A DNA stretch of 40,000 bases from Dryocola boscaweniae (lineage in GTDB: Bacteria > Pseudomonadota > Gammaproteobacteria > Enterobacterales > Enterobacteriaceae): contig NZ_JALHAP010000078.1 of assembly GCF_025215095.1 (NCBI RefSeq), positions 277,425-317,424 on the forward strand, read 5' to 3'. Positions within the stretch are counted from its first letter, which is position 1. Every line of letters starts with the position of its first letter. Shown here piece after piece: positions 10,147 through 28,158 of the stretch. The position numbers and the translations under genes are program-made. Below the pieces are notes generated by a model. The model ran no database searches and was not told where the DNA came from. It saw only the letters and a program-made list of their open reading frames with translations.

Positions 10147-11574
10147 ATGCGCAAAAGATTTGAATCCACAGTCCCTTCATTTTCCTCCTCCCGCCGCAGG
10201 CTGTTATGGGCCAGTTCAGTACTGGCCGCAGCGCCCTTAGTTTTATCTCGCACGGTTCTGGCTGCCGGCGGCAAAAGCGAGGTAAACATTCAGAAATTCT
10301 ACAATGGCGACTGGCCTGCAGCGTTCAAACAGGCCTTTGCCGCTGCCGATGCCGTTGTCGTGCCCAATGATTTGGTCTGCGACAATATCAACACCGCGAT
10401 TTTTATGCCGGAGAATAAGACGCTGCGGGTAGCTGGCGGCCTTAAGGGCAACGGCAAAGGACGTTTTGTCTTGCAGGATGGGTGTAAAATCCTCGGCGAG
10501 AAAGGCGGACGTTTTAATAACATTATCCTGGACGTTCGCGGGTCTGACTGCACCATTCAGGGCATTGATATGAGCGGCTTCGTGCCGGTGATGCAAATTT
10601 ATATCGGCGGCAGGGATAAGCGCACCATGCGTAACCTCGTCATTGATGACATCACTATCCATGACGCCAACTACGGCATACTTCGCCAGGGTTTTCACAA
10701 CCGCATGGAGAACGTGAAGATAACCAACGGTCACTTCAGTCATTTACAGGGCGATGCCATCGAGTGGAACGTGGCGATTAACGACCACGATCTGCTTATC
10801 TCCGATCATGTGATTGATAACATTGATTGCACCAACGGCAAGATTAACTGGGGGATTGGCATCGGCCTTGCGGGAAGCACTTACAATAATGAGTATCCGG
10901 AAGACCAGGCGGTGAAGAATTTTGTGGTGGCTAACATCACCGGCAGCAATTGTCGCCAGCTTGTTCACGTTGAAAACGGTAAACATTTCATTATTCGCAA
11001 TGTGAAGGCGCGCAATATTAATCATACTTTCAGCAGGAAGGCCGGAATTGATAATGCCACGGTAGCCATTTATGGCTGTGATAATTTCGTGATTGATAAT
11101 ATAGATATGGTGAATAGCGCAGGGTTCCTTATTGGCTATGGTGTTATTAAAGGCAACTATTTGTCTATTCCGCAAAACTTCCGGCTTAACGACATCACGC
11201 TTGATAACAGCAACATGTCGTATAAGGCCCGGGGCATTCAAATCTCTTCCGGTAACGCCACTTCGTTTGTCGCTATTACTAACATGACAGTGAAGGGGGC
11301 GACGCTTGAGCTGAACAACAAGCCTCAGCACCTTTTCCTGAGAAATGTCAATGTGATGCAGCGTGCAGCCGTAGGGCCTGCGCTGAAGCTGCGCTTTGAT
11401 TTACGCAAGGACGTGCGGGGCCGCTTTATGGCGAAAGAAGACACGCTGCTTTCGCTGACCAACATTCATGCGGTCAATGAGAAAGGACAGAGTTCAGTGG
11501 ATATCGACCGCGTAGATCATAAGCATGTGAACACCAGTAACCTTAATTTTGCTCTACCACCGTTGCGTAAATAA
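10147..11574 (+). CDS. wcaM: Colanic acid biosynthesis protein WcaM (beta-helix protein with Tat-type signal)
   Basis: 475 aa. Long identical stretches to recalled E. coli WcaM ([46 protein letters not shown]). The N-terminus has a twin-arginine motif ([17 protein letters not shown]). Confidence 0.85.
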
Positions 11575-11602
11575 ACAATCAAGCGACTTTACGATTTTTC
11601 TG

Positions 11603-11634
11603 AGCCCTTATTGACTTTAATAAGGGCTTTTTAG
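11603..11634 (+). terminator. Rho-independent terminator ending the colanic acid operon
   Basis: A perfect 10-bp stem, agcccttatt / aataagggct, with a 6-nt loop, followed by ttttt, about 30 nt after the wcaM stop. Confidence 0.65.
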
Positions 11635-11693
11635 TTTTGTATCCCACGAGCCGGGGGATAAGATGAAGTACAAACTTTGGGGATCAATTCATG

Positions 11694-11722
11694 CTGGCAT
11701 CAGAGCACGAAAAGACTATAAT
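11694..11722 (+). promoter_or_regulatory. Candidate sigma70 promoter for galF
   Basis: ctggca (-35-like, 4/6), a 17-nt spacer, then tataat (perfect -10 at 11717-11722), about 30 nt upstream of the galF start. Sequence pattern only. Confidence 0.35.
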
Positions 11723-11751
11723 CCCTCAACCATTTTAGAGGTGGGCTGAAT

Positions 11752-12648
11752 ATGATTAATTTGAAAGCAGTTATCCCGGTAGCCGGTCTTGGCATGCATA
11801 TGTTGCCTGCGACAAAAGCCATCCCGAAAGAGATGCTGCCGATTGTCGATAAGCCGATGATCCAATACATCGTCGATGAAATCGTGGCCGCGGGTATCAA
11901 AGAAATCGTGCTGGTAACCCACTCTTCCAAGAACGCGGTTGAAAACCATTTCGACACGTCTTATGAGCTTGAAGCACTGCTGGAACAGCGCGTGAAGCGC
12001 CAGTTGCTGGCTGAAGTGCAGTCAATTTGCCCGCCGGGCGTGACCATTATGAACGTCCGTCAGGCACAGCCACTTGGGCTTGGCCATTCCATTTTGTGCG
12101 CGCGCCCTGTCGTTGGCGATAACCCATTTGTCGTTGTGCTTCCGGATGTGGTGCTGGACAACGCAAGCGCTGACCCACTGCGCTATAATTTGGCTGCAAT
12201 GGTAGCGCGCTTCAATGACACTGGCCGCAGCCAGGTTCTGGCGAAACATATGCCGAATGAAGACCTCTCCGCTTATTCCGTTATCACAACACAAGAATCG
12301 CTGGATAACGACGGGCAGGTGAGCCGCATCGTCGATTTCGTCGAGAAACCAGACCAGCCGCAAACCCTGGATTCAGACCTGGCAGCCGTTGGCCGCTATG
12401 TGTTGTCTGCGGATATCTGGGCGGAACTGGAAAAAACCGAACCGGGCGCATGGGGCCGTATTCAGTTAACGGATGCCATCGCCGCGCTAAACAAAAAACA
12501 GCCGGTAGAAGCTGCTCTGATGACAGGTGAGAGCTACGACTGCGGCAAGAAAATGGGTTACATGAAAGCGTTTGTGGAGTACGGCCTGCGTAACCATAAG
12601 GAAGGGCAGAAGTTCCGGGATAGCATCCAGAAGATGCTGGCTCGTTGA
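11752..12648 (+). CDS. galF: UTP-glucose-1-phosphate uridylyltransferase-like protein GalF
   Basis: 298 aa. [51 protein letters not shown] is essentially identical to recalled E. coli GalF. This is the classic 5' flank of O-antigen loci. Confidence 0.95.
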
Positions 12649-12683
12649 TTTTAAGCCGATGAAAAAAAATCTCTTATGAGAAG

Positions 12684-12752
12684 AACGGCAGTTAAAGTGG
12701 CAATGGGGTTGCGATTGGGCAGCTTTGTTGGGGCTGACTGCCGTTTTTTTAT
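12684..12752 (+). terminator. Possible galF terminator (long-loop hairpin plus T-tract)
   Basis: aacggcagt (12684-12692) pairs with actgccgtt (12737-12745) and is followed by T7. The 44-nt loop is atypically large, so confidence is low. Confidence 0.3.
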
Positions 12753-12881
12753 GTAAGGCAAAAGGAAGGGGAATCTGCTGGTTAGCGAGCCTATTGGCAT
12801 AAATAAGATTTGGCTGTTGTTTATTCCAATGTGTTCCGCCTCGACAATATTTGTACGAGACATAAAGCGAGTAGCAAATAT

Positions 12882-12920
12882 CAGTATTCTGGTAGCTGTT
12901 AAGCCAGGGGCGGTAGCGTG
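12882..12920 (+). promoter_or_regulatory. 39-bp JUMPstart element containing the ops site (RfaH loading site)
   Basis: cagtattctggtagctgttaagccaggggcggtagcgtg matches the recalled JUMPstart consensus. The 12-nt ops GGCGGTAGCGTG sits at 12909-12920, about 110 nt upstream of rmlB. Confidence 0.85.
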
Positions 12921-13028
12921 GTTAAAGGCTTTGTTAGACTCATTCCCGTGTTTTCATCTTACTCAGGATTATCATCTTCAGTATAAGTCTTGAAGATAAT
13001 CATTACATATTAGAGAGAGAATATTTTC

Positions 13029-14114
13029 GTGAAAATTCTTGTTACTGGTGGTGCCGGTTTTATCGGTTCTGCGGTCGTTCGTCACATCATAAATAATACT
13101 CAAGACAGCGTCGTTAACGTCGATAAATTGACCTATGCGGGTAACCTGGAATCCCTGGCAGAAGTCTCCGATAGTGAGCGCTATGCGTTTGTTCAGGCAG
13201 ATATTTGCGACAGAAATGCTTTAGATAAGATTTTTGCAGAACATCAACCAGACGCGGTAATGCACCTGGCGGCGGAAAGCCATGTTGATCGTTCTATTAC
13301 CGGGCCTGCTGAATTTATCGAAACCAATATTGTCGGGACTTATACCCTTCTGGAAGCTGCTCGGGCCTACTGGTCTCAATTAAATGATAGCTGTAAAGCA
13401 GGCTTTCGTTTCCACCATATCTCTACGGATGAAGTTTACGGCGATTTACCGCATCCGGACGAACGTCCGGCAGGTGAAGAATTACCTCTGTTTACAGAAA
13501 CAACTTCTTATGCGCCGAGCAGCCCATATTCTGCTTCTAAAGCATCCAGTGACCACCTGGTTCGTGCGTGGCAACGTACCTATGGCTTGCCGTGTATCGT
13601 GACCAATTGTTCAAACAATTACGGCCCGTTCCACTTCCCTGAAAAACTGATCCCATTAGTAATCCTCAATGCTCTTGAAGGCAAAAACCTGCCGGTATAT
13701 GGCAAAGGCGATCAGATTCGCGACTGGCTCTATGTGGAAGACCATGCACGTGCGCTTTATACCGTAGTAACTCAGGGCCAGATTGGTGAGACATACAATA
13801 TTGGTGGCCATAACGAGAAGAAGAATCTCGATGTTGTAATGACGATTTGTGGCTTATTGGATGAACTGGTCCCTAAAACCACTTCATACCGTGAACAAAT
13901 CACCTACGTTGCAGACCGTCCGGGACATGATCGTCGCTATGCTATTGATGCCAGTAAAATCAGCCATGAACTGAACTGGAAACCACAGGAAACCTTCGAG
14001 AGCGGTATTCGTAAAACCGTACAATGGTATCTGTCAAACCAGCAATGGGTCGAAAATATTAAGAGCGGGGCCTATAAAAATTGGATTGAGCAAAATTATG
14101 GGGATCGCAAGTAA
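13029..14114 (+). CDS. rmlB: dTDP-glucose 4,6-dehydratase
   Basis: 361 aa with a GTG start. Motifs: [14 protein letters not shown] Rossmann, [15 protein letters not shown] (YxxxK), NCSNNYGP. Confidence 0.95.
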
Positions 14115-15013
14115 TGAATATCCTTCTGTTTGGCAAAACAGGCCAGGTCGGCTGGGAACTACAGCGCTCTCTGGCCCCGTTAGGCAATATAATTGCAGTT
14201 GATGTGCATTCGACTGAATATTGCGGTGATTTCAGTAATCCAGAAGGCGTTGCGGAAACCGTACGCCGAGTGAAGCCTGATGTAATTGTAAATGCAGCAG
14301 CACATACTGCCGTAGATAAAGCCGAAAGCGAGCGTGATTTTGCGCAATTGCTTAATGCGACGAGCGTAGAAGCTATTGCTAAAGAAGCAGAAAAAATCAA
14401 CGCATGGCTGGTTCATTATTCTACGGATTATGTTTTCCCTGGCGATGGTGAAAAACCATGGCAGGAGACAGATGCTACAGCGCCCCTTAATGTGTATGGC
14501 GAAACAAAATTAGCTGGTGAAATTGCTGTGCAACAATACTGTACCAGGCATCTGATTTTTCGTACCAGTTGGGTATATGCCGGGAAAGGAAATAATTTTG
14601 CAAAAACCATGCTGCGCCTGGCTAAAGATCGTGCAGAGCTAGCTATTATTAACGATCAGTTTGGAGCACCAACCGGGGCAGAGCTATTAGCTGATTGCAC
14701 AGCGCATGCAATTTCCACCGCATTGCGCAAACCAGAGGTAGCAGGGCTTTATCATCTTGTTGCTTCTGGTACCACAACCTGGTTTGATTACGCTAACCTG
14801 GTATTCGCTGAAGCGAAAAACGCTGGTCTGGTACTTGCCGTTAATAAAACTAATCCAGTACCTACATCTGCATACCCTACACCAGCGAAACGGCCTCATA
14901 ACTCCCGGCTAGATACTTCGAAGTTCCAGCAAACATTTAACTTAACATTGCCTTGTTGGGATGTTGGCGTGAAGCGTATGCTGGCCGAGCTTTTTGCGGC
15001 TTCGAATGCATAA
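14114..15013 (+). CDS. rmlD: dTDP-4-dehydrorhamnose reductase
   Basis: 299 aa. [27 protein letters not shown], and YG-TKLAGE are all typical RmlD. The start overlaps the rmlB stop (TAATG). Confidence 0.95.
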   Translation: MNILLFGKTGQVGWELQRSLAPLGNIIAVDVHSTEYCGDFSNPEGVAETVRRVKPDVIVNAAAHTAVDKAESERDFAQLLNATSVEAIAKEAEKINAWLVHYSTDYVFPGDGEKPWQETDATAPLNVYGETKLAGEIAVQQYCTRHLIFRTSWVYAGKGNNFAKTMLRLAKDRAELAIINDQFGAPTGAELLADCTAHAISTALRKPEVAGLYHLVASGTTTWFDYANLVFAEAKNAGLVLAVNKTNPVPTSAYPTPAKRPHNSRLDTSKFQQTFNLTLPCWDVGVKRMLAELFAASNA

Positions 15014-15073
15014 TAAATAATATTAACAGTGCTCAAGCTAAAGAGCGCTTTCAATACATTGGGATATCAAATA

Positions 15074-15946
15074 ATGACTTCACGTAAAGGAATTATCCTC
15101 GCTGGTGGTTCTGGTACTCGCCTGTACCCGGTAACAATGGCCGTCAGCAAACAACTTTTGCCTATTTATGACAAGCCGATGATCTATTACCCACTCAGCA
15201 CATTAATGCTGGCGGGCATTCGAGACATCCTCATCATCAGTACTCCACAAGATACACCGCGCTTCGAACAATTGCTGGGAGACGGTAGCCAGTGGGGTTT
15301 AAATCTTCAGTATAAAGTGCAGGATAATCCGGATGGTTTGGCACAGGCGTTTATCATTGGCGAAGAATTCATTGGTAACGATGATTGTGCATTAGTTCTT
15401 GGCGACAATATTTTCTACGGCCATGATTTGCAAAAGCAGCTTGAAAATGCCGTGGCAAAAGAGTCAGGAGCTACGGTCTTTGCTTATCATGTTCACGATC
15501 CTGAACGTTATGGCGTTGTTGAGTTTGATAAAGATGGCAAGGCCATCTCCCTTGAAGAGAAACCACTTGAGCCAAAAAGTAATTATGCGGTTACAGGACT
15601 TTATTTCTATGACAATAGCGTTGTAGAAATGGCTAAAGGTCTGAAGCCTTCAGATCGTGGTGAATTGGAAATTACAGATATTAACCGTATCTATATGGAA
15701 CAGGGCCGCATGTCAGTAGCCATGATGGGCCGCGGTTATGCATGGTTAGATACCGGCACGCATCAGAGCCTTATCGAAGCGAGCAACTTCATTCAGACCA
15801 TTGAGCTGCGCCAGGGGCTAAAAGTCGCTTGCCCTGAAGAGATAGCGTTTCGAAAAGGGTTTATTGATGCCGAGCAAGTAAATAAATTAGCACAGCCATT
15901 GTCAAAAAATGCTTATGGGAAGTATTTGTTAAATATGATTAAGTAA
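15074..15946 (+). CDS. rmlA: Glucose-1-phosphate thymidylyltransferase
   Basis: The ATG at 15074 gives [21 protein letters not shown], the canonical RmlA start (290 aa). The track start at 15029 is an upstream in-frame GTG with no support. Confidence 0.95.
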
Positions 15947-15961
15947 TCATCAGATAATTTA

Positions 15962-16762
15962 ATGTTATATACAGAAGAAATAATGGGTATGGGAAATTTT
16001 ATAAGCGTAATATCACATGGTCACGCTGCGTTGATAAAAGAACTAAATGTATTGTCTAAATTAGCCATAAGCAACACAGTGATTATTAAATGTAATAAAG
16101 AAAGCGATGTCGTTGCGTTAGAAGGGTATTGTAAAAAAAATAATATTCATCTTATTACTGATAACTATGGCTTAGGTTTCGGTGCGAATAATAACTTAGT
16201 ATTTAACTATTGTAGAAAAAATCTCGGATTGAAAGCTGAAGACTATTTCATTGTAATGAACCCTGACTTAGAAATAGATACATATGAACTTAAAAAATTA
16301 AATTGCTATGTATTAGAAAACGCATCAAAATTATCGACTATAAATTTATATAAAAATGAGGAAAAAACAGTCTCAGATGACGCAATAAGAAAGTACCCTA
16401 AAATGGGGGATTTTTTTCTATCATTAGTATTAAAGAAAAATCGTTCTAAATATAATAAGACGCTGATTGAAAAACCTACGGAAGTTGATTGGGCTGCAGG
16501 TTCTTTCCTGATGTTTCAAGCGGATCATTATCAGCAACTTGGTGGATTTGATGAGAAATATTTTATGTATTGTGAAGACATAGATATTTGTTATCGTTCT
16601 AGTTTATTAAAGCATAAGCCAATATATTATCCAGATGTTACGGCTGTTCACTATGCGAAACACGCTAACAGATCCTTTTTATCAAAACATTTCTTCTGGC
16701 ATCTTAAGAGTGCTTTATTATTTCTTGCGATGCGATATAAAAACCCAATTAAAATCAATTAA
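15962..16762 (+). CDS. wbbL: WbbL-like GT2 rhamnosyltransferase (predicted dTDP-Rha:GlcNAc-PP-Und transferase)
   Basis: Collinear with recalled E. coli K-12 WbbL: VISHGH, GFG-NNN, NPD, RK-P, VDW-AGSF-M, GFD--YFMYCEDID-C-R, HYA-H-NRSF-SK-F-WHLKS. Alternative starts at 15983 or 15989 (MGMGNFISVISHGH) would fit the family length better. Confidence 0.8.
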   Translation: MLYTEEIMGMGNFISVISHGHAALIKELNVLSKLAISNTVIIKCNKESDVVALEGYCKKNNIHLITDNYGLGFGANNNLVFNYCRKNLGLKAEDYFIVMNPDLEIDTYELKKLNCYVLENASKLSTINLYKNEEKTVSDDAIRKYPKMGDFFLSLVLKKNRSKYNKTLIEKPTEVDWAAGSFLMFQADHYQQLGGFDEKYFMYCEDIDICYRSSLLKHKPIYYPDVTAVHYAKHANRSFLSKHFFWHLKSALLFLAMRYKNPIKIN

Positions 16763-16787
16763 TGTGCCTTTTTAGTAGAGAGTGTTT

Positions 16788-17339
16788 ATGAATTTTGTCG
16801 AAACAGAAATAAAAGATGTGAAAATTATTGAACCAAAAGTGTTCGGTGATTCGAGAGGCTTTTTTTATGAAAGTTTTAATGAAAAAAAGTTTATAGACGA
16901 AACTAAACAAAATATAATTTTCTGTCAAGATAACCATTCAAAATCTTCACGAGGGGTTTTACGAGGCCTACATTTTCAACGAAACCCCTATGCTCAAGGA
17001 AAACTAGTTCGATGCATTGCAGGATCGGTTTTTGATGTTGCAGTGGATATTAGAATAGATTCGCCAAGTTATGGTAAGTATGTGAGCGTAGTTCTGTCTG
17101 CAGAGAATAAGAAACAATTGTGGATACCTGCGGGTTTTGCTCATGGATTTTTGACATTAGAGGATAATACTGAATTTGTATATAAAACTACAAATTATTA
17201 TCATCCGGAAAGTGAAGGTTGCATTGTATGGAATGACAAACAATTAAATATAAATTGGCCAGTTATCGGAGAAATAAAGTTATCTGATAAAGATAATTTA
17301 GGAATGACATTGGCGCAATACATTGAAGAATTTAATTAA
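16788..17339 (+). CDS. rmlC: dTDP-4-dehydrorhamnose 3,5-epimerase
   Basis: MNFVETEIKDVKIIEPKVFGDSRGFFYESF, QDNHS-S--GVLRGLHFQ, KLVRC--G-VFDVAVD and YKTTNYYHPESE are all RmlC hallmarks. The ATG at 16788 follows a gagag SD; the track start at 16782 is a GTG two codons upstream. Confidence 0.9.
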   Translation: MNFVETEIKDVKIIEPKVFGDSRGFFYESFNEKKFIDETKQNIIFCQDNHSKSSRGVLRGLHFQRNPYAQGKLVRCIAGSVFDVAVDIRIDSPSYGKYVSVVLSAENKKQLWIPAGFAHGFLTLEDNTEFVYKTTNYYHPESEGCIVWNDKQLNINWPVIGEIKLSDKDNLGMTLAQYIEEFN

Positions 17340-17341
17340 AT

Positions 17342-18256
17342 ATGAATGCAAATGTGCTGGCAGTAATTGTACTGTATAATCCTAACATCATTATTCTCGA
17401 TGCCTTAATCAAAAGTATAATTGATCAAGTTGAATATCTCTGTGTGGTTGATAATAGTCCATCCCCTGCTGAATATTCAGTTAACCAATTATTAAAGGAA
17501 CATATCCATAAAAGCATTTATCTCCCTTTTCATGACAACTTAGGCATCGCAACTGCACAGAATAAAGGAATTAAGTGGGCGAAGGATAATGGATTTACAC
17601 ATGTATTGCTTTTAGATCAAGACAGTCTTTTGCCTCCAAATATGGTTTCTGAATTATTGTCTGATGAGAATAAGTTAGTAAGGATTGGCTACAAAGTTGC
17701 TGCTATAGGTCCTTCTTTCATTGACCAGAAAACTAACGAAACGACATCCGCTGTAGAAACAGGATTTTTAAGAACCAAAAAGAAAACTGTTTCCAGCGAA
17801 AATACCCTCCCGGTAAAAAGTGATTATATAATTGCCTCTGGCTCATTGATCCGCATAAGTACTTTAGATACCTTGGGGGGTATGAGAGAAGAGTTATTCA
17901 TTGATTGGGTAGATATTGAATGGGGGGAACGATGCCACAATGCGGGATATTTTTCATTTATATCCAGAAATGTTATCATGCAGCATAGCATTGGAGATGA
18001 GCATATTAATATTTTAGGGAAAATAATATATTTGCACTCTGATTTCAGAAATTATTTCATAGTTCGAAATGCTGTCTATCTGTCAAAAGATCCATCGATT
18101 CGATGGAAATTGAGGTGTTCTATGTTTCTAAAAACACCTTATTACATCACGCTTTTCTCTTTACTTTCTAAAAAGAAAATTTACTCTTTCAGGTTACTTC
18201 TTAGAGCAGTTATGGATGGGCTTCGCAATAAAATGGGGAAAGGTTATTTTAAATGA
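17342..18256 (+). CDS. GT2-family glycosyltransferase, L-rhamnosyltransferase-like
   Basis: 304 aa. It has the GT-A N-terminus (AVIVLYNPN, VVDNSP, GIATAQNKGI) and a DxD-type LLLDQDS motif. The pattern resembles the rhamnosyltransferase subgroup of GT2, but acceptor and donor cannot be read from the sequence. Confidence 0.75.
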   Translation: MNANVLAVIVLYNPNIIILDALIKSIIDQVEYLCVVDNSPSPAEYSVNQLLKEHIHKSIYLPFHDNLGIATAQNKGIKWAKDNGFTHVLLLDQDSLLPPNMVSELLSDENKLVRIGYKVAAIGPSFIDQKTNETTSAVETGFLRTKKKTVSSENTLPVKSDYIIASGSLIRISTLDTLGGMREELFIDWVDIEWGERCHNAGYFSFISRNVIMQHSIGDEHINILGKIIYLHSDFRNYFIVRNAVYLSKDPSIRWKLRCSMFLKTPYYITLFSLLSKKKIYSFRLLLRAVMDGLRNKMGKGYFK

Positions 18257-19311
18257 CACCATACTACACCTTCCTTTTTTTAACCCTATTTTTGGTTACC
18301 CTAAGTAGTGTGATGAAAAAACAGTCAAAAGCGTTAAGTGATCTCGCTTGGCTGTTTCTTCTTTGCTCTTTAGCTGTGATTGCAGCTATTAGGGCACCAG
18401 GTGTGGATCGTGACTATTATAATTATTTAAGCTGGTTTGGTTTAATAAACTCAAGTTTTACTGACGCAATTGCAGAAAATAAAGATTTGGGTTTTGTTTA
18501 CTTGTACAAAATAATATCCTTTTTAACTCCTGAACCTTGGCTTTTCTTCTTTGTAATAAGCTTGCTTGCTTTGCAGTTTAAGAGAAAATTTGCGGTGACC
18601 ATATTTAATGGTCGTTTTGTCGGGATGCTATTCTTGCTTATAATTGCAAGATTTTATTTGCTACATGAATTTACTCAAATTCGTGCTGGTTTAGCAATAG
18701 CTTTAAGTTCATATGCGGTTGTTATAAACCTAAACAATAAAAATAAACATAGTCATATTTATTTTTTGATGGCTATTTTAATGCATCTTTCGACAATTTT
18801 AATACCGGCGTTATTGATGGCATATAAAATTTTCCCATTCGTTCGGAAAAGATATTTTTTATTATTACTACCTTTGCTAGGATTTTGTTCTGCTGGTGTA
18901 TCTATATTAATTTTAAGAAATATTGAAATGCACCGTTTATTAATTTATGCGGATGCAGACCAATTACAAGGCGTTTCATTATTATCTTTTTATTATATTG
19001 TGCGATTTGCAGTTTATTATTTTATTTTAATTAGGGTTTATGATTATCTAGAACCTTCAAAAAAAGCTATTGTTTATTTTTCTGCTGTCAGTTTATTCAG
19101 TAATGCGGCGTTTTCATGGAGTAGTGTAATATCATTAAGAATCGTTGAATTATTGGGAATGTTTGACTTAGCTATGTTTATACTTCCTGTCTTGTATGTC
19201 AAAAATAATAGTGTTTGGATATATAAACTATTAGTGGTTATATTAGCAGTAATTCTGTTTACTTCAACCGTAAAGATTATGAATCCCTATGAAACTTTTT
19301 TATTTAATTAG
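18253..19311 (+). CDS. wzy: O-antigen polymerase Wzy (EpsG-like family)
   Basis: 352 aa, about 10 predicted hydrophobic spans. It has an EpsG-like FTQIRAGLAIAL motif. Very AT-rich. ATGA overlap with the upstream GT. It is the only polymerase-like membrane protein in the cluster. Confidence 0.7.
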   Translation: MTPYYTFLFLTLFLVTLSSVMKKQSKALSDLAWLFLLCSLAVIAAIRAPGVDRDYYNYLSWFGLINSSFTDAIAENKDLGFVYLYKIISFLTPEPWLFFFVISLLALQFKRKFAVTIFNGRFVGMLFLLIIARFYLLHEFTQIRAGLAIALSSYAVVINLNNKNKHSHIYFLMAILMHLSTILIPALLMAYKIFPFVRKRYFLLLLPLLGFCSAGVSILILRNIEMHRLLIYADADQLQGVSLLSFYYIVRFAVYYFILIRVYDYLEPSKKAIVYFSAVSLFSNAAFSWSSVISLRIVELLGMFDLAMFILPVLYVKNNSVWIYKLLVVILAVILFTSTVKIMNPYETFLFN

Positions 19312-19422: not shown

Positions 19423-20172
19423 ATGAATCATATGAAAGTTGTTTATACTGCTCTTTTTGGTAATTATGATCAATTGATATCTGCACCGATTAGCTCAGAA
19501 GAAATTTGTTATATTTGTTTTACTGATCAAAAAATAAAAGACTCAAAGGGTTGGCGCATAATTCAAGTGGATTCAGAAGCCTCGAATTTTTCAAAGGCAA
19601 TGTTAAACCGATATTATAAAATCAATCCACATCTATTTTTTAGTGATTATGATAGCAGCCTTTATGTTGATGCAAATATCGAAATCATCAAAGACCCATC
19701 TTTTCTATTTGATAAATATCTTAAGAATGCAGATATAGCTGTACCAAAACATTTCTCCCGGAACTGTATTTTTTCCGAAGCTACCGAGTGCATTATAGTT
19801 GGTAAAGATAAAGCTAGCCGAATTCGAAAGCAAATGAAAAAATATAAAGCAGAAGGCATGCCAGAAAATTTTGGGCTGGGTGAGAATAATATTATTTTCA
19901 GAAATCATAATGATATTAAAGTTAAAAAAATTATGGGCGAGTGGTGGCGTGAGATGAATACGGAATCGTCTCGAGATCAATTAAGCTTTGGATATATACT
20001 TTGGAAAAATAAATCTCAATTTCTTTATATGGATGAGTCATCTAGAGCTGGTAAGGGTTTCTTTAAGTATCATATGCATAATGAGGTTGCAAGTAAACGG
20101 CATGTATCAAGGATGCATCATAAGCTTTCTGTAAAATTCCGAAAAGTGATTTATTTTAATCTCAAATATTAA
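19423..20172 (+). CDS. DUF616 (TOD1/MUCI70-like) putative glycosyltransferase
   Basis: 249 aa from the ATG at 19423 (gagg SD 6 nt upstream; the track start at 19411 is TTG). Pattern VVYTALFGNYD ... YYKINPH ... YDSSLYVDANI ... H--RNCI--E ... WWREM---S-RDQLSFGYILWK is what I recall for Pfam DUF616. Confidence 0.6.
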   Translation: MNHMKVVYTALFGNYDQLISAPISSEEICYICFTDQKIKDSKGWRIIQVDSEASNFSKAMLNRYYKINPHLFFSDYDSSLYVDANIEIIKDPSFLFDKYLKNADIAVPKHFSRNCIFSEATECIIVGKDKASRIRKQMKKYKAEGMPENFGLGENNIIFRNHNDIKVKKIMGEWWREMNTESSRDQLSFGYILWKNKSQFLYMDESSRAGKGFFKYHMHNEVASKRHVSRMHHKLSVKFRKVIYFNLKY

Positions 20173-20293
20173 AGACTTGGTCTCCGAGTTTAAAATTCAA
20201 ATATGATAAAATCCTCGACGTTTAACAGAAATTCATATTGGCAATATTTTTTCCAACTATTTCAGTTAAAGTTCAATTTGGCATGGGATATTT

Positions 20294-21163
20294 ATGTTAC
20301 AAGTAAAAAAAATATTAAGAGAGCTAAGAGCCCGTTTATTCCCCGATGCTTTATATTTAGAACATGTCTTCGTAAAGCAAGTAGGCTACAAACTGAACCT
20401 AAAGAATCCCCAAACCTTCAATGAGAAGTTGCAATGGTTGAAAATTAATTATCGTAAGCCACTATTAACGCAGTGTGCTGATAAATATGCTGTACGAGAA
20501 TACATTGCAACGGTTATTGGTGAACAATATTTAATACCTTTGATCCATGTGACTGATGAACCAAATGATTTACTTACTTTTGAGTTCCCTGATTACCCTT
20601 GTATTGTAAAATCTAATCATGATAGTGGCGGTTATCAGATCATCAGAGATAATAACGTTGATCGAAATAAATTAGTTACTGATGCAAGCGGATGGATTAA
20701 AAATAATCATTTCTATAAAACAAAAGAATGGCAATATAAAAATATTAAGCCTAAGATTATTATTGAAAAATTACTAATGGACGAGAATGGTCATATACCA
20801 AATGATATAAAATTTAGTTGCATAAATGGCCGCGCTGAAATTGTTCATGTTGATTCAAATAAAGAAGTTAAGCATTTACGAAATAATTATACTCGTGAGT
20901 TCGAACCGCTCGCCATGAACTGGCCAGCAGAGTATGATCGTAATGTCTATTTTCCTAAGTCCAAAGTTTTCCCTGAAGCCAGGCAACTAGCAGAAATACT
21001 TGCTAAACCTTTCCCTTTTGTGCGTGTTGATTTCTATTTTGTAGGTGAAAACATATATTTCGGGGAGCTTACGTTTCATCCAACTTCAGGCTTTGGCCGT
21101 TTTTCACCCAACTATTATGACTTCAAATATGGAAGCAAATTAACTTTGCCAAAAGTTATTTGA
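20294..21163 (+). CDS. TupA-like ATP-grasp fold amidoligase family protein
   Basis: 289 aa. LNLKNPQTFNEKLQWLKINYR, DKYAVREYI, IVKSNHDSGG, PFPFVRVDFY and IYFGELTFHP-SG fit the recalled ATPgrasp_TupA family profile along the whole length. Confidence 0.65.
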   Translation: MLQVKKILRELRARLFPDALYLEHVFVKQVGYKLNLKNPQTFNEKLQWLKINYRKPLLTQCADKYAVREYIATVIGEQYLIPLIHVTDEPNDLLTFEFPDYPCIVKSNHDSGGYQIIRDNNVDRNKLVTDASGWIKNNHFYKTKEWQYKNIKPKIIIEKLLMDENGHIPNDIKFSCINGRAEIVHVDSNKEVKHLRNNYTREFEPLAMNWPAEYDRNVYFPKSKVFPEARQLAEILAKPFPFVRVDFYFVGENIYFGELTFHPTSGFGRFSPNYYDFKYGSKLTLPKVI

Positions 21164-21405
21164 TTTATTTTTGTCAGTTATAATGCCTTTGTTAATGCTT
21201 TAATCCCTGTATAGTTAAATTTTCTTATATAATATTTGCGTGATGTCCACGAAGCAAAATAGTTTTACATATACTATTAATCATCAATTTATTATTCAGC
21301 ACAGCACTTTTTTCTATTGCTATCATCTAATCTTAAGTTAACATCTAAGCCACATTCTAAGCTGCGCATATAACGCGCAGTGACCACACCTGACAGGAGT
21401 ATATG

Positions 21406-22812
21406 ATGTCCAAACAACAGATCGGCGTTGTCGGTATGGCAGTGATGGGGCGCAACCTGGCGCTGAACATCGAAAGCCGTGGCTACACCGTCTCCGTTTT
21501 CAACCGCTCCCGCGAAAAGACCGAAGAAGTAATTGCTGAGAACCCAGGCAAGAAACTGGTTCCTTTTTATGCGGTGCAGGAGTTTGTTGAATCGCTGGAA
21601 AAGCCTCGTCGTATCCTGTTAATGGTGAAGGCTGGCGCAGGCACTGATGCAGCCATCGATTCTCTAAAACCGTACCTTGATAAAGGCGACATTATTATTG
21701 ATGGCGGTAACACATTCTTCCATGACACCATCCGTCGTAATCGTGAACTGTCTGCAGAAGGCTTCAACTTCATCGGGACCGGTGTTTCCGGCGGTGAAGA
21801 GGGGGCGCTGAAAGGCCCATCCATCATGCCAGGCGGCCAGAAAGAAGCTTACGAATTGGTTGCACCGATTTTGACTAAAATTGCTGCGGTAGCAGAAGAC
21901 GGCGAGCCTTGCGTGGCCTATATTGGTCCAGACGGCGCTGGTCATTACGTTAAAATGGTACATAACGGCATCGAATACGGCGATATGCAACTAATTGCAG
22001 AAGCCTACGCACTGTTGAAAGGTGGCCTGAATCTATCCAACGAAGAGCTGGCGCAGACTTTCACCGAGTGGAATGAAGGTGAACTGAGCAGCTATTTGAT
22101 CGATATCACTAAAGATATCTTCACTAAGAAAGACGAAGAGGGTAAATACCTTGTTGATGTGATTCTAGATGAAGCCGCAAACAAAGGCACCGGTAAATGG
22201 ACCAGCCAGAGCTCCTTGGATCTGGGTGAGCCATTGTCACTGATCACCGAATCCGTGTTCGCACGTTACATCTCTTCTCTAAAAGAGCAGCGTGTTGCTG
22301 CATCTAAAGTGCTATCCGGCCCACAGGCTGAGCCAGCCGGTGACAAAGCGGAATTCATCGAGAAAGTCCGTCGCGCGCTGTACTTGGGCAAAATCGTTTC
22401 TTACGCTCAGGGCTTCTCTCAGTTACGCGCTGCGTCTGATGAGAACAGTTGGAACCTGAACTACGGTGAAATCGCGAAGATCTTTCGTGCTGGTTGCATT
22501 ATCCGCGCCCAGTTCCTGCAGAAAATTACCGACGCTTATGCTGAAAATGCTGGCATCGCAAATCTGTTGCTGGCTCCATACTTTAAGCAAATTGCTGATG
22601 ACTATCAGCAGTCACTGCGTGATGTGGTGGCCTATGCTGTTCAGAACGGTATTTCAGTGCCGACGTTCTCTGCAGCTATTGCTTACTACGATAGCTACCG
22701 TGCCGCTGTGTTACCTGCGAACCTAATTCAGGCACAGCGTGACTACTTCGGTGCGCATACCTATAAGCGTATTGACAAAGAAGGTGTGTTTCACACCGAA
22801 TGGCTGGATTAA
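21406..22812 (+). CDS. gnd: 6-phosphogluconate dehydrogenase (decarboxylating)
   Basis: [30 protein letters not shown] from the second ATG, 468 aa. Near-identical to recalled E. coli Gnd throughout. An aggag SD lies upstream. Confidence 0.97.
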
Positions 22813-22838
22813 TCTGGTTTAACTCAATTCGATAGCAA

Positions 22839-22867
22839 GGCCCGGTGATAATGACCGGGCTTTTTTA
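22839..22867 (+). terminator. Rho-independent terminator after gnd
   Basis: Stem gcccggt / accgggc with a 7-nt loop, followed by tttttt, about 30 nt after the gnd stop. Confidence 0.7.
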
Positions 22868-23058
22868 TTGATACAAATCCCTAGCCACTCATGTCACCAA
22901 GTTCTCCTTGATATCAAAAATATATTGCAGAATAAGTTGCTGCTTTAGTTCTTCTTTGCAGAATGGTCCTCGCTTTAACAGTGAAAAACCACAAAGGTTG
23001 TTTATTGTGGCGATGCTGTTTATGCTTCCTTATATACAAATGTGAAAAAATAGAACGA

Positions 23059-24225
23059 ATGAAAATAACAATTTCAGGAACAGGCTATGTTGGTCTCTCA
23101 AACGGTATCCTGATAGCACAAAACCATGAAATAGTCGCGCTGGATATCGTGCAAGCCAAAGTGGATATGCTTAACCAAAATATTTCTCCTATTGTTGACA
23201 AAGAGATTCAGGAATATTTAACAAGCAAGCCGCTTAACTTTCGTGCTACCACGGATAAAAAAGATGCCTATAGCGGCGCCGATTATGTAATTATCGCCAC
23301 GCCGACGGACTACGATCCGAAGAGCAATTACTTCGATACCTCAAGCGTTGAAGCCGTTATTAAGGATGTTATCGCGATTAATCCAAATGCAGTTATGATT
23401 ATTAAATCCACGATTCCAGTCGGTTTTACTCAGTCGATTAAAGAAGCGCTGGGTATTGACAACGTGATTTTCTCACCAGAATTCCTGCGTGAGGGTAGGG
23501 CACTTTATGACAACCTGTATCCGTCACGTATTGTCATCGGTGAGCGCTCTGAGCGTGCAGAACGTTTTGCCGAATTGTTACAGGAGGGGGCTATCAAAAA
23601 AGATGTCCCAGTATTGTTTACCGATGCCACGGAAGCAGAAGCAATTAAACTTTTCGCCAATACCTATCTGGCCATGCGTGTAGCCTATTTCAATGAGCTG
23701 GACAGCTACGCCGAAAGTCTAGGGCTGAACACGCGTCAGATCATTGAAGGTGTTTGCCTCGACCCGCGCATCGGTAACCACTACAATAATCCATCCTTTG
23801 GCTACGGTGGCTACTGTCTGCCAAAAGATACTAAGCAACTGTTAGCTAACTATCAGTCTGTACCCAACAATCTGATCTCAGCGATTGTGGATGCTAACCG
23901 TACGCGTAAGGACTTTATTTCTGATTCTATTTTGGCGCGTCAGCCGAAAGTAGTGGGCGTGTACCGTTTGATCATGAAGAGCGGTTCGGATAATTTCCGC
24001 GCATCGTCTATTCAGGGGATCATGAAGCGTATCAAGGCGAAAGGTGTTCAGGTTATTATTTACGAGCCAGCGATGAAAGAGGATGAATTTTTTCATTCAC
24101 GTGTGGTGCGTGAATTGAGTACGTTCAAGGAAGAGGCGGATGTGATTATTACGAACCGAATGGCAGAAGAGTTGGCTGATATTTCCGAAAAGGTTTATAC
24201 TCGTGATTTATTTGGTAACGATTAA
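23059..24225 (+). CDS. ugd: UDP-glucose 6-dehydrogenase
   Basis: The ATG at 23059 gives [16 protein letters not shown] (388 aa), the canonical Ugd start. [12 protein letters not shown] contains the catalytic Cys. The track start at 22963 adds an unsupported Cys-rich extension. Confidence 0.95.
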
Positions 24226-24289: not shown

Positions 24290-24501
24290 TTGTAACTATA
24301 CTAAGTAATAAGTTCTACTATAGCCCTCTAACATCAAACTTGATTGCTAAAATTAAATTCTATTTTCTCAAAGATTAATTTTTCCTTTAGATGAAATACA
24401 TTGGTTTTTTTATCGTGTTTTTATTTGCTCTATTTTTTTTGGAGTGTGTTTGGGGTGCTATATATTATAAATATGGAAGTGTTTTATTTGAAGAGATTTA
24501 T

Positions 24502-25725
24502 ATGAAGAAATTTGTATCGAAAGAGTTTTTGACAAATTTTGCTGGTTTGTCATCTATAAATGTGCTTGGTATTCTGCTACCATTATTAACAATGCCTTTT
24601 CTGTCAAGAAGTCTTGGCTCAGAAAGCTATGGCGTGGTGTTGCTTTTTTCAAGTCTCTTAATATTCATGGTCATTATTATTGACTATAGTACTAATATTA
24701 ATGGCGTGAGAGATGCCGCTGTTAACATGAATGACAAAAGTCTTCTTCAAGATATTTATGATAAATATCAAGGGATTAGGCTTTTTTTTGCGTTAGCATT
24801 TATTCCTTTATCGTTAATATATTGTTTGCTTTACCTTAGTCTATTCGACACTTGGCAGTACATTGAGGTCATTTTAGTAAGCGTGCTTGGTTATTATTTA
24901 TCTGCTCCATGGTTTCATCAGGGTACTTCAACCCTTGCTTTTTTCTCTGTAATTTCTATATTTACCCGTCTTCTGCAAACGGTTGCTATCTTTTATTTTG
25001 TACATGACGAAAATTCTGCATTTATTGCTATGAGACTCAATGCTTATTTTTTCTTAATTTCCGGTTTTATTATGTATTTATATCGATTGAAGAGGATGAG
25101 GATAAAGGAATCATATAAGATTTCCTTTCCCCTAAAAGATTTAAAAGAAGGATGGGATACTTTTCTTGGCGATTTCTCCCCAAATCTTTATAGTAATATT
25201 CCACCTTTAATTATCGGAGCTTTAGTTAACCCGGTAATTTTTGCATGTTACTCCTTAGCTATAAGAATGATTAATATTGCTGGTAGCTTTCAATCAATTG
25301 CGGCAAGAGCATTGTACCCACTTATTGTAAAGGGTACTGCAACTTTTAGAATATTATTTTGTATTAATTTAATAATGTCGATTGTTCCAGTTGTTATAAT
25401 TATTTTTTTTGGTAGGGATTTGGTATTATTATTGTTGGGTAATGGATATGAGCAGTCTTATATTTACTTGTTGATATGTACTCCTAGTATTATTCTTTAT
25501 TCAATACTATGTTCTTTTGCTTATGGTTTCTTTCTCCCTAACAGGCATGATAAAATTTTTAAAAGGATTTCCATTTTTTCGTCTGTTATTCCTGCGTTTA
25601 TTGGCTATCCTCTTATTCATTTCTTTGATGTCTATGGCGCCATATTTATGTTGGTGCTAGCGAGAGCAATGTTTGCATTTTCTTATTCATATTTTTACTG
25701 GAGGTTAAACAAAAAATTAATATAA
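24502..25725 (+). CDS. wzx: O-antigen repeat-unit flippase Wzx (MOP/PST family)
   Basis: From the ATG at 24502, MKKFVSKEFLTNFAGLSSINVLGILLPLLTMPFLSRSLGSESYG is a typical Wzx N-terminus. 407 aa, about 12 hydrophobic spans, very AT-rich. The open frame extends upstream to an ATG at 24391 (37 extra hydrophobic residues, no SD). Confidence 0.75.
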   Translation: MKKFVSKEFLTNFAGLSSINVLGILLPLLTMPFLSRSLGSESYGVVLLFSSLLIFMVIIIDYSTNINGVRDAAVNMNDKSLLQDIYDKYQGIRLFFALAFIPLSLIYCLLYLSLFDTWQYIEVILVSVLGYYLSAPWFHQGTSTLAFFSVISIFTRLLQTVAIFYFVHDENSAFIAMRLNAYFFLISGFIMYLYRLKRMRIKESYKISFPLKDLKEGWDTFLGDFSPNLYSNIPPLIIGALVNPVIFACYSLAIRMINIAGSFQSIAARALYPLIVKGTATFRILFCINLIMSIVPVVIIIFFGRDLVLLLLGNGYEQSYIYLLICTPSIILYSILCSFAYGFFLPNRHDKIFKRISIFSSVIPAFIGYPLIHFFDVYGAIFMLVLARAMFAFSYSYFYWRLNKKLI

Positions 25726-26039: not shown

Positions 26040-26988
26040 GACTTTACAAAATTACAAAATTACTCACTTCCCTTTTTAGAGAGGTTTGAGTTTTGAAATC
26101 AATTACCTGATACAGTGATTTAATGTTGGCACCGGTTTCTATAACATCGCCTGGTAACATCGGCATCATATTTTTTCTGCTTCAACCTCTGATGCCTTTT
26201 CAACATCCCTCAGCTTGACAGGTAAACTATTGTTCATATTGTTAACGGGGGATATGGTGCGGAATTGATTGCCCGGGAGTTAGTTTCCACAGTCCCGTTT
26301 ATGTCTACCCGAGGTATCCGGACAATCGCTTCAGCAATATAATTGATACAGGTGAGGTCACGCTGTATCTTACAATTGTTATAAATGTCAATACTTTTCC
26401 CTTCGGTCATAATCTTAGTGCGCTTAAAGAGTACTATGTCCGGACTGCCTCTTGGGGCATACACCGTAATGAAATGCAGGCCGTTGGTTGGCAGGTTATA
26501 AAGATAGTAGTAAGTATGCGACATCAGTTCGTTGACTTTTTTGATGGACGCTGGAGTGATGCCGGGTAGTCAACCGAGTCATCGGTAGAAAACGGCATTT
26601 TGCAGTTCAGACCATGTATGGAACAGGAAGAAGCGTACAGGAGATGGGGAACCTTGTTATGACAACAGACTTCAGCACACATGGCAAAACTATTTGCCGA
26701 TGAGAAGTTTGATCGCGTGATTCACTTTGCAGTTCAGACCGGTGTGTGTTATTTGATCGAAAATCTGTACGCCTAGGCTGATTCAAAATTTTTTGGCCAT
26801 TTATGTTATCACGGTTGGCCAGATACAGTTTAAAAAGCGTGAAATTTCCTGATAAAAAAATCTAAGTGCGCTGTATACGACTGACGTCGTATTAATCATA
26901 CACGTTTTCAAGTTCAACAATTTGATGTCCTACTTTCAAAAACGCGCTTACCAACAAGGCCCGCTACACATGTAATCAGAAATTTCAT
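26040..26988 (-). pseudogene. gla: Decayed UDP-glucuronate 4-epimerase (gla/uge type, SDR) with frameshifts, stops and an internal inversion
   Basis: Minus-strand pieces read MKFLITCVAGLVG (Rossmann, ATG at 26988 with gaggaa SD) and GHQIVELENVYD*YDVS, then (after the inverted segment) CCHNKVPHLLYASS-SIHGLNCKMPFSTDDSVDYPASL, HTYYYLYNLPTNGLHFITVYAPRGSPDIVLFK, GKSIDIYNN-KIQRD and MMPMLPGDVIETGANIKSLYQVIDF. These are collinear with recalled Gla/Uge sequences but need several frameshifts and contain in-frame stops. Track ORFs 26234-26524 and 26914-27096 are fragments of this gene. Confidence 0.75.
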
Positions 26989-27177: not shown

Positions 27178-28158
27178 ATGTCTCAGAACGACAATAACGT
27201 GGTCAGTCGTAGTAGTGACCCTGAGCAAATTGATTTCATTGATCTTATAATGCAGCTTTGGCGCGGTAAGTGGACGATTATCGCGTTTGTCATTGTTGCT
27301 ATTGTGCTTGCAGGCGCGTATTTACTTGTTTCTAAAGAGAAATGGACTTCCACAGCGGTTATCACTCAGCCAGATGCTGCGCAAATTGCAACATACAACA
27401 ACGCGTTAAACGCTATTTACGGCAATTCGGCACCCAACATTACGGATGTACAGAATCGTGTGGTTGGGCGCTTAAGTTCCTCAATGTCGGCCTTGTCCGA
27501 AACTCTGGCGAATCTGGAGGCACCTGAAACATTGACGATTGAACCTTCAGTGAAAGGCCAGCAGTTACCGCTGAAAATTTCCTATGTTAGCGATACTCCG
27601 GAGAATGCCCAGGCTAAGGTTGCTCAGTATCTTCAACAGGTTGATGAGCAAGTTGGCGCAGAGTTAGGGGTTGACCTTAACGACAGCATTAAAATGCAAA
27701 TTACCACGCTTGAAGATTCTCTAAAAACTCAGGAAAAAGTGGCTCAGGAACAAAAAGATCTGCGTATTAAGCAGATCAGCGAGGCGCTGAAATTTGCTAC
27801 AGAAGCAAAAGTTGCTTCACCTCAGTTACAGCAGACATCAGATGTGACTCAGGATACGATGTTTTTGTTAGGCAGCGAAGCGTTGTCCTCAATGATTAAA
27901 AATGAGGCGACTCGTCCATTGGTATTTTCTCCGGCTTATTACCAGACCAAACAAAACCTGTTCGATATCCAGAACCTGAAAATCGATCCTAAAACTATCC
28001 ATGCGTATCGCTATGTGATGAAGCCAACCCTTCCTCTTCGCCGCGATAGCCCGAAAAAGGGTATTACCCTGATACTGGCGACGTTGCTGGGTGGAATGAT
28101 TGGCGCTGGCGTGGTGTTAGGACGTAACGCGATTCGCAATTACAAAACCGTTGCTTAG
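27178..28158 (+). CDS. wzzB: O-antigen chain-length determinant WzzB (Cld/Rol, PCP-1 family)
   Basis: 326 aa. DPEQIDFIDLIMQLWRGKWTII, KEKWTSTA-ITQPD and the C-terminal RRDSPKKGITLILATLLGGMIGAG match recalled E. coli WzzB. There is a TM span at each end. Confidence 0.92.
   Translation: MSQNDNNVVSRSSDPEQIDFIDLIMQLWRGKWTIIAFVIVAIVLAGAYLLVSKEKWTSTAVITQPDAAQIATYNNALNAIYGNSAPNITDVQNRVVGRLSSSMSALSETLANLEAPETLTIEPSVKGQQLPLKISYVSDTPENAQAKVAQYLQQVDEQVGAELGVDLNDSIKMQITTLEDSLKTQEKVAQEQKDLRIKQISEALKFATEAKVASPQLQQTSDVTQDTMFLLGSEALSSMIKNEATRPLVFSPAYYQTKQNLFDIQNLKIDPKTIHAYRYVMKPTLPLRRDSPKKGITLILATLLGGMIGAGVVLGRNAIRNYKTVA

Follow-up and report, generated by a model that had tools for sequence, protein, structure and literature searches.

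Near the middle of a 40,000-nucleotide stretch of the Dryocola boscaweniae genome (the window; contig NZ_JALHAP010000078.1, positions 277,425 to 317,424, from whose first letter all coordinates below are counted), an O-antigen gene cluster contains a gene for a DUF616 protein (19423-20172) next to a gene for a TupA-like ATP-grasp protein (20294-21163). We propose that these two genes form a glycosylate-then-decorate module of a Wzx/Wzy-type O-antigen operon under RfaH/ops control, in which the DUF616 protein would attach a hexuronate to rhamnose and the ATP-grasp protein would then convert this hexuronate to an amide; we give the proposal an even chance of being right. The pair was first singled out in a sequence-only reading of the window. 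Comparative genomics largely supports that interpretation, although its argument from gla, the gene for UDP-glucuronate 4-epimerase, was wrong, and the chemistry is something that we infer. The same reading held that the two families have almost no characterisation in this setting, which is fair for their biochemistry, but both families are already present in the published Escherichia coli O54 cluster, and decoration by TupA-like enzymes has long been predicted. Because both families occur in that cluster, the window pair belongs to known kinds and is not a new system.

Protein families and predicted folds

Two adjacent, AT-rich genes had been described at 19423-21163, and both open reading frames (ORFs) are indeed located there on the plus strand; the GC content is 31-33% in the central cluster genes, against 54-58% in the flanks. 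Both family assignments were borne out as well, and the predicted structures match the assigned families. The first gene, which starts with ATG and has GAGG 7 nt upstream, encodes 249 amino acids (aa) and matches the Pfam family PF04765 (TOD1_MUCI70; GT116-like) with 76.1 bits, where 21.4 is the cut-off (E 3.8e-21), residues 6-198 corresponding to positions 73-291 of the 314 in the profile. PF04765 is present in all 285 DUF616 homologues. AlphaFold2 models of the two proteins were built on 40-sequence alignments, and that of the DUF616 protein (pLDDT 92.8) has a GT-A fold. Its top 50 Foldseek matches in the PDB are all nucleotide-sugar transferases of the GT8, GT6, and GT24 families (probability 1.00, TM 0.42-0.53), and the nearest solved folds are those of GT8 (XXYLT1, LgtC, WbbM, LARGE1, and GlyE), GT6 (GTA/GTB and alpha3GalT), and GT24 (UGGT). 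These three families are classed as retaining in CAZy. Judged by its model, the DUF616 protein is thus predicted to be a GT-A glycosyltransferase (GT) of the retaining type.

The name of the Pfam family recalls another activity, because TOD1 has been reported as a ceramidase, and the DUF616 protein could in principle be a TOD1-type hydrolase resembling alkaline ceramidases. We find this hardly credible: every top solved match of the predicted GT-A fold is a nucleotide-sugar glycosyltransferase, transfer of galacturonic acid (GalA) has been demonstrated for MUCI70/RGGAT1, and the gene belongs to clusters for O-unit assembly whose set of transferases would be incomplete without it.

The second gene encodes a stand-alone protein of 289 aa that matches PF14305 (ATPgrasp_TupA) with 154 bits (E 6.5e-45), the cut-off being 25, almost from end to end (residues 44-282; profile positions 1-239 of 241). 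Its model (pLDDT 94.8) has an ATP-grasp fold, and its nearest solved folds are PsnB, the D-Ala-D-Ala ligases (Ddl), LysX, and biotin carboxylase (probability 1.00). When the PDB was searched by sequence, no relative turned up for either protein. Among 40 homologues of each, the invariant residues are D16, D83-x-N85, H110, R113, E119, R184-D185-Q186, and H219 in the DUF616 protein, and K106, H109, E145, E158, D171, K173, R244, D246, and E258 in the ATP-grasp protein. They fit a pair of active enzymes; in particular, K106, E158, R244, D246, and E258 of the ATP-grasp protein would be the conserved nucleotide- and Mg-binding residues of its fold, if they have the roles that we infer. A protein of Enterobacteriaceae bacterium H20N1 (GCA_025215145.1) matches that encoded by the ATP-grasp gene with 100% identity. 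A more distant comparison is offered by L057, a metagenomic cluster with the same gene order, in which the DUF616 protein shares 71% and the ATP-grasp protein 78% identity with its window counterpart. Here both genes show purifying selection (pN/pS 0.174/0.749 for DUF616 and 0.125/0.764 for ATP-grasp), with synonymous sites saturated in both.

The state of the two genes bears on the idea that the cluster is a decaying remnant, which has lost gla, in which the DUF616 and ATP-grasp steps are idle, and which makes a truncated or altered O-unit. The gla pseudogene of the window is heavily degraded, and the decay of the ATP-grasp gene in most O54 genomes, described below, shows that such loss happens. 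Against this, both ORFs are intact and keep all of the family-invariant residues, pN is far below pS in the comparison with L057, and gla may be present at another site in the genome; the Erwinia and Cronobacter clusters have no local copy and must likewise rely on a distant one. A remnant therefore seems very unlikely to us.

Co-occurrence of the two genes

The sequence-only reading treated the two genes as a pair, and the pair proved to be a genuine recurring module. Wherever a cluster with an ATP-grasp homologue of at least 56% identity was inspected, DUF616 and rml genes were also found (nine of nine clusters: the window, L057/L058, E. coli O54 (L009), Enterobacter sichuanensis (L060), the enteric metagenome-assembled contig L061, Erwinia (L020), Vibrio L062, L063, and L064). 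The identity of the ATP-grasp protein to that of the window is 68% in O54, 66% in both E. sichuanensis and L061, 62% in Erwinia sp., and 56% in Vibrio sp. 1865, and the nine include two further metagenome contigs. In the Erwinia cluster, whose overall gene set is the same as that of the window, the two genes are adjacent. Among distant TupA loci (36-46% identity), DUF616 was found in only 4 of 78, immediately adjacent to the ATP-grasp gene in all four.

From the DUF616 side, a scan of one genome per species gave 45 loci, of which seven have a TupA-like ATP-grasp gene within 10 kb. DUF616 homologues with 46-52% identity to that of the window occur without an ATP-grasp gene in an E. coli O-type (OgN), O155-type E. 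coli, Cronobacter sakazakii, and Lelliottia. The partnered ATP-grasp proteins hold 56-78% identity, while their DUF616 partners fall to 38-44%; the window DUF616 protein is nearer to unpartnered relatives than to these partnered ones. This pattern indicates that the ATP-grasp gene is an accessory gene that has been re-assorted among DUF616 lineages. On these distributions, we regard the pairing as meaningful and the dependence as one-way, of ATP-grasp on DUF616. Taken together with the decay seen in O54, the co-occurrence and the re-assortment make the ATP-grasp protein look like a dispensable decorating enzyme whose substrate is the product of DUF616. We found no description of this one-way coupling of the ATP-grasp subclade to DUF616 in the searchable literature.

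It might be objected that a mosaic cluster carries the two genes as unconnected passengers, DUF616 being a backbone glycosyltransferase while the ATP-grasp protein targets an unrelated protein or envelope polymer. Klebsiella CfmP, a TupA-like protein, modifies FimA, and surface polysaccharides are not needed for this; DUF616 stands without ATP-grasp at 38 of the 45 loci, and the phylogenies of the two proteins are not congruent. However, the co-occurrence in the ATP-grasp subclade spans the Enterobacteriaceae and Vibrio without exception in the nine clusters, even distant pairs have the two genes side by side, and CfmP's N-terminal domain differs, according to its authors. Moreover, the ATP-grasp gene lies within an ops-controlled operon: a scan of the plus strand from rmlB to the hairpin after gnd found no terminator-like site, which places both DUF616 and ATP-grasp inside the main O-antigen transcription unit. 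We therefore hold independent passengers to be improbable.

The cluster of Vibrio sp. 1865 (L062, 9024-15530) shows a further arrangement of its own. Two PGA_cap and two ATP-grasp genes are placed around wzy and DUF616 in this rhamnose cluster, with ugd and a gla-like epimerase gene nearby, and the doubling suggests two different amide decorations.

Comparison with known enzymes

RGGAT1 of plants, the same protein as MUCI70 and the founding member of GT116, transfers GalA from UDP-GalA onto rhamnose-terminated rhamnogalacturonan I (RG-I). In Campylobacter jejuni, the C-terminal TupA domain of Cj1438 (Cj1438C), which is fused to a glycosyltransferase, amidates the C6 carboxylate of glucuronic acid (GlcA) once this sugar is part of the growing chain, after which the amine is dephosphorylated by a HAD phosphatase; HS19.11C performs the same post-incorporation amidation. 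Both activities, GalA transfer to rhamnose and amidation of glucuronate, were part of the sequence-only reading and agree with the literature.

The window DUF616 protein resembles RGGAT1/MUCI70 in its PF04765 domain, in the expected retaining GT-A character, and in a context of rhamnose and uronic acid. It differs in being a short (249 aa), soluble protein that has no membrane stem and covers the profile only in part, and it is predicted to act on a lipid-linked O-unit, whereas RGGAT1 is a Golgi enzyme that elongates a polymer. Likewise, the window ATP-grasp protein shares with Cj1438C and HS19.11C the TupA-like ATP-grasp fold, the location in a surface-polysaccharide locus, and the coupling to a glycosyltransferase step. 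Unlike that of Cj1438, it is not fused to a GT2 domain, and it serves a Wzx/Wzy pathway rather than the ABC-transporter capsule of C. jejuni. In addition, the window cluster has no genes for serinol phosphate or ethanolamine phosphate synthesis and no Cj1435-type HAD phosphatase: among its ORFs, we found no HAD, aminotransferase, or decarboxylase gene of a phospho-amine pathway of the Cj1438C/Cj1435 type. The strict association of ATP-grasp with DUF616 fits, by analogy, an amidation of uronate like that by Cj1438C.

Closer to the Enterobacteriaceae, TupA-like enzymes have long been predicted to be amino-acid ligases of surface polysaccharides. One of them, WemR of Proteus mirabilis (predicted by Iyer et al. 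2009), is like the window protein a TupA-like ATP-grasp enzyme in an enterobacterial surface-polysaccharide locus; the likeness is one of description, ligases of the WemR type being predictions for which no link to DUF616 has been described. For DUF616, a literature search found no paper on a role in bacterial polysaccharide.

The E. coli O54 cluster

The O54 cluster of E. coli occupies the same chromosomal locus and contains both families (ATP-grasp 68% and DUF616 43% identical to the window proteins), rmlBDAC, and a rhamnosyltransferase-like GT2 gene (35%). It differs from the window in having a PGA_cap gene that overlaps the start of the ATP-grasp gene, a HAD gene paired with an unannotated 261-aa ORF (orf261), a further GT2 gene, and an intact gla, and in that DUF616 and ATP-grasp are not adjacent. 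The window has no PGA_cap partner, unlike the O54, Enterobacter, and Vibrio clusters.

Most O54 genomes carry a decayed ATP-grasp gene. Ten of 14 complete E. coli genomes of the O54 type reach no more than 90-95% identity to the region with intact ATP-grasp. In L010 (E. coli AR_452), a representative of these ten, PGA_cap and ATP-grasp are frameshifted and diverged (11000-12850; 65-82% aa identity to L009), while DUF616, HAD, and orf261 are intact at 95-97% and elsewhere the cluster agrees with L009 at about 96% identity. Intact versions of PGA_cap and ATP-grasp are found in the rodent-derived isolates MP1 (L009), R12, and LI60C3.

According to a review of the E. coli O-antigens, O54 contains ribofuranose (Ribf). 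With two GT2 proteins, DUF616, HAD, and orf261 encoded in the cluster, the transferase count fits DUF616 as a glycosyltransferase. The O54 unit, reportedly described by Naumenko and colleagues in 2018, is said to be ->4)-alpha-D-GalpA-(1->2)-alpha-L-Rhap-(1->2)-beta-D-Ribf-(1->4)-beta-D-Galp-(1->3)-beta-D-GlcpNAc, and would thus have an alpha-GalA-(1->2)-alpha-Rha linkage in a strain type whose DUF616 protein is related to that of the window. If this structure is right, the alpha-GalA-(1->2)-Rha bond, a linkage shared with the RG-I backbone, would most naturally be assigned to a DUF616 enzyme of the retaining type.

The HAD gene of O54 accompanies orf261 and not ATP-grasp. In E. coli MP1 (L009), orf261 is an intact ORF at 8102-8887 that overlaps the stop codon of the HAD gene and has no RefSeq annotation; it gave no match in Pfam or the PDB. 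The two genes also travel together in E. sichuanensis (L060), and both are absent from L061. They may be a phosphatase/transferase pair for the O54 ribofuranose. Two other roles were considered and rejected. DUF616 could have been a ribofuranosyltransferase dependent on phosphoribosyl pyrophosphate (PRPP) and partnered by HAD, but many DUF616 clusters have no HAD gene, HAD travels with orf261 instead, and the fold of DUF616 is that of a nucleotide-sugar GT-A enzyme. HAD is also unlikely to be the phosphatase of an amide pathway, for L061 keeps PGA_cap and ATP-grasp and yet has no HAD.

The sugar donor and the objections

Two genes beside the cluster, a relic of gla and ugd, had been counted in the sequence-only reading as sources of the uronic-acid substrate, and here that reading failed. 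Searched by tblastn with O54 Gla, the window gla (about 26050-26940, minus strand) is split into four pieces, spread over three frames and interrupted by in-frame stops, at 57-60% aa identity, accompanied by a short inverted duplicate fragment on the plus strand. UDP-GalA therefore cannot come from this locus. As for ugd, a fixed resident of this position with a housekeeping role, it carries no information on the O-antigen.

Other loci also bear on the donor. Among 5426 complete E. coli genomes, gla is present in 293 (5.4%), and an intact copy adjoins all three of the E. coli O-clusters that bear DUF616; 10-13 of the 45 DUF616 loci have a gla-like gene no farther than 10 kb away. Domain fusions provide links to rhamnose: Falsirhodobacter (L039, 8273-11533) and an alphaproteobacterial metagenome-assembled genome (L029, 8260-9915) have fusions of DUF616 with RgpF domains of rhamnan synthesis, and in the latter a TupA ATP-grasp domain fused to a GT61-like domain follows 1 kb downstream (10843-13008). 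TupA is fused to glycosyltransferase domains in L053 too, and other DUF616 fusions involve GT2, GT8, and sulfotransferase domains. Comparison of sequences in this way lends indirect support to a uronic-acid donor for DUF616.

The alternative is that DUF616 transfers a neutral or amino sugar (Gal, Glc, or GlcNAc) and that the ATP-grasp protein ligates an amino acid or another group elsewhere on the O-unit, to a different carboxylate or to a hydroxyl, perhaps through an ester linkage. The dead local gla fits this, as do the roughly 32-35 of 45 DUF616 loci that have no gla-like gene within 10 kb, the varied contexts suggested by the GT2, GT8, and sulfotransferase fusions, and the presence of the ester-forming macrocyclases PsnB and AMdnB among the top fold matches of the ATP-grasp protein. 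But gla accompanies DUF616 in three of three E. coli clusters against a background of 5.4%, and the characterised members of PF04765 use UDP-GalA. Furthermore, an ATP-grasp enzyme needs a carboxylate and the cluster holds no other pathway for a carboxylate-bearing sugar, and the only characterised TupA-like enzymes of polysaccharides amidate C6 of GlcA. We judge a neutral or amino sugar to be unlikely, though less so than the other alternatives.

Several observations weigh against a hexuronate that is transferred by DUF616 and then amidated. The gla gene beside the window cluster is a dead, old pseudogene. Most DUF616 loci have neither gla nor ugd within 10 kb, and both are missing at the Erwinia (L020) and C. 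sakazakii (L005) loci. The invariant motif of DUF616 is D83-x-N85 and not the canonical DxD, and the searchable literature assigns no biochemical function to a bacterial DUF616/GT116-like enzyme. On the ATP-grasp side, CfmP acts on fimbriae and not on a polysaccharide, so that membership of the TupA-like family does not by itself fix the substrate, and O54 is not among the amino-acid-amide serogroups in the E. coli O-antigen review. There is also a difficulty of structure: the O54 polysaccharide reportedly contains free GalA and no amide. Some of the difficulties can be met: the Erwinia and Cronobacter clusters without a local gla make a distant copy plausible, and the decayed module in most O54 genomes may explain an amide-free O54 structure.

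Organisation of the cluster

The window cluster has the content of a Wzx/Wzy O-antigen cluster: the region from galF to his contains wzx, wzy, wzz, and genes for sugar pathways and glycosyltransferases, and an ops element lies upstream. The features given here with coordinates are on the plus strand. After galF (11752-12648), the left boundary of the O-antigen region, comes the ops element GGCGGTAG (12909-12916), which is 5' of rmlB and marks an RfaH-dependent operon. The full dTDP-L-rhamnose pathway is present as described earlier, with rmlB, rmlD, and rmlA at 13029-15946 and rmlC at 16782-17339, and the Rml proteins are 83-88% identical to those of E. coli O54. A WbbL-like GT2 gene (15983-16762) precedes rmlC, and a GT2 rhamnosyltransferase gene of the TIGR01556 subfamily (17342-18256) and wzy for an O-antigen polymerase of the EpsG family (18253-19311; PF14897, E 5.1e-28) follow it. 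The DUF616 and ATP-grasp genes are next, and beyond them are gnd (21403-22812), a terminator-like hairpin (22837-22863) 3' of gnd, ugd (inside the ORF 22963-24225), the wzx flippase gene (24391-25725; PF01943, E 1.4e-12), the gla pseudogene (minus strand), and wzz (27178-28158), followed by the his genes.

As had been predicted, inspection of ORFs and Pfam matches gives three glycosyltransferase candidates and no initiating transferase in the cluster. The description of two of them as rhamnosyltransferase-like stands for one, which passes the NCBIfam TIGR01556 cut-off (216.6 bits against 200.55) and has homologues in O54 (35%), E. coli OgN (L002, 42%), and Erwinia (31%). The other is WbbL-like only by the names that some sources give to its homologues at 47-52% identity, and its matches to Pfam GT2 are weak. 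It is a candidate for the first rhamnosyltransferase on GlcNAc-PP-Und, and is kept alongside the pair in L057 (69%) and Erwinia L020 (47%). In a search of complete E. coli genomes with the window cluster, rmlC alone matched, and weakly, which indicates that the cluster is not that of an E. coli serogroup.

Some features of the surroundings may be recorded here. The ops octamer GGCGGTAG occurs six times in the window (279, 2782, 9871, 12909, 33530, and 36058) against 0.84 expected from shuffles; the only copy in the canonical position is that at 12909, on the plus strand before rmlB, and the others are in the colanic-acid and his regions. Promoter-like sites are no more frequent in the window than in shuffled sequence. 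The wzx gene, with a GC content of about 31%, is cut off from the other O-unit genes by gnd, the hairpin, and ugd, and this layout, with wzx downstream of gnd-ugd, is shared by E. coli OgN (L002) and the O155-type cluster (L059). Finally, the ugd ORF (420 aa) begins 32 codons upstream of the 388-aa product in the public record, which has the typical size of Ugd, and the N-terminal extension is probably not translated.

Proposed pathway and its meaning

The pathway that we propose would begin with WecA, encoded elsewhere, which would start the unit on Und-P. The WbbL-like and TIGR01556 GT2 enzymes would add L-rhamnose from dTDP-L-rhamnose, and DUF616, a glycosyltransferase by family and predicted fold, would then add an alpha-linked hexuronic acid from a UDP-sugar to the terminal rhamnose. 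The donor would preferably be that of GalA if a working gla exists elsewhere in the genome, and otherwise that of GlcA made by ugd. In the cytoplasm, the ATP-grasp enzyme would activate the C6 carboxylate of the new uronic acid as an acyl phosphate with ATP and couple it to an amine, and the resulting uronamide would be in place before flipping by Wzx and polymerisation by Wzy. Because the cluster has no gene for amine synthesis, PGA_cap, or a HAD phosphatase, the amine is most likely a common free metabolite, and a free amino acid is the simplest guess. The amide step would be an optional decoration, while the glycosyl transfer would not be optional.

A more specific version can be put forward tentatively, as possible but rather doubtful. 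The two genes may be a portable cassette of the Enterobacteriaceae and Vibrio that builds, on lipid-linked O-units, an alpha-GalA-(1->2)-Rha linkage as in plant pectin and afterwards turns the GalA carboxylate into an amide. If so, this would be the first bacterial function for GT116, and the ATP-grasp protein would be a uronamide ligase of a stand-alone type, working with a free amine and independent of a phosphatase. The rodent E. coli O54 strains such as MP1 would then carry an amidated variant of O54, distinct from the structure that is said to have been published.

If the general proposal is true, it would give functions to two widespread families that are biochemically uncharacterised in bacterial surface-glycan loci, and would tie the enzyme family of the plant RG-I backbone (GT116) to the chemistry of bacterial O-antigens. 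The ATP-grasp subclade together with DUF616 would serve as a genomic marker for charge-neutralising uronamide decorations, which alter the serology of the O-antigen, its specificity as a phage receptor, and the surface charge. The E. coli O54 strains with an intact and with a decayed module would represent a natural experiment on such a decoration.

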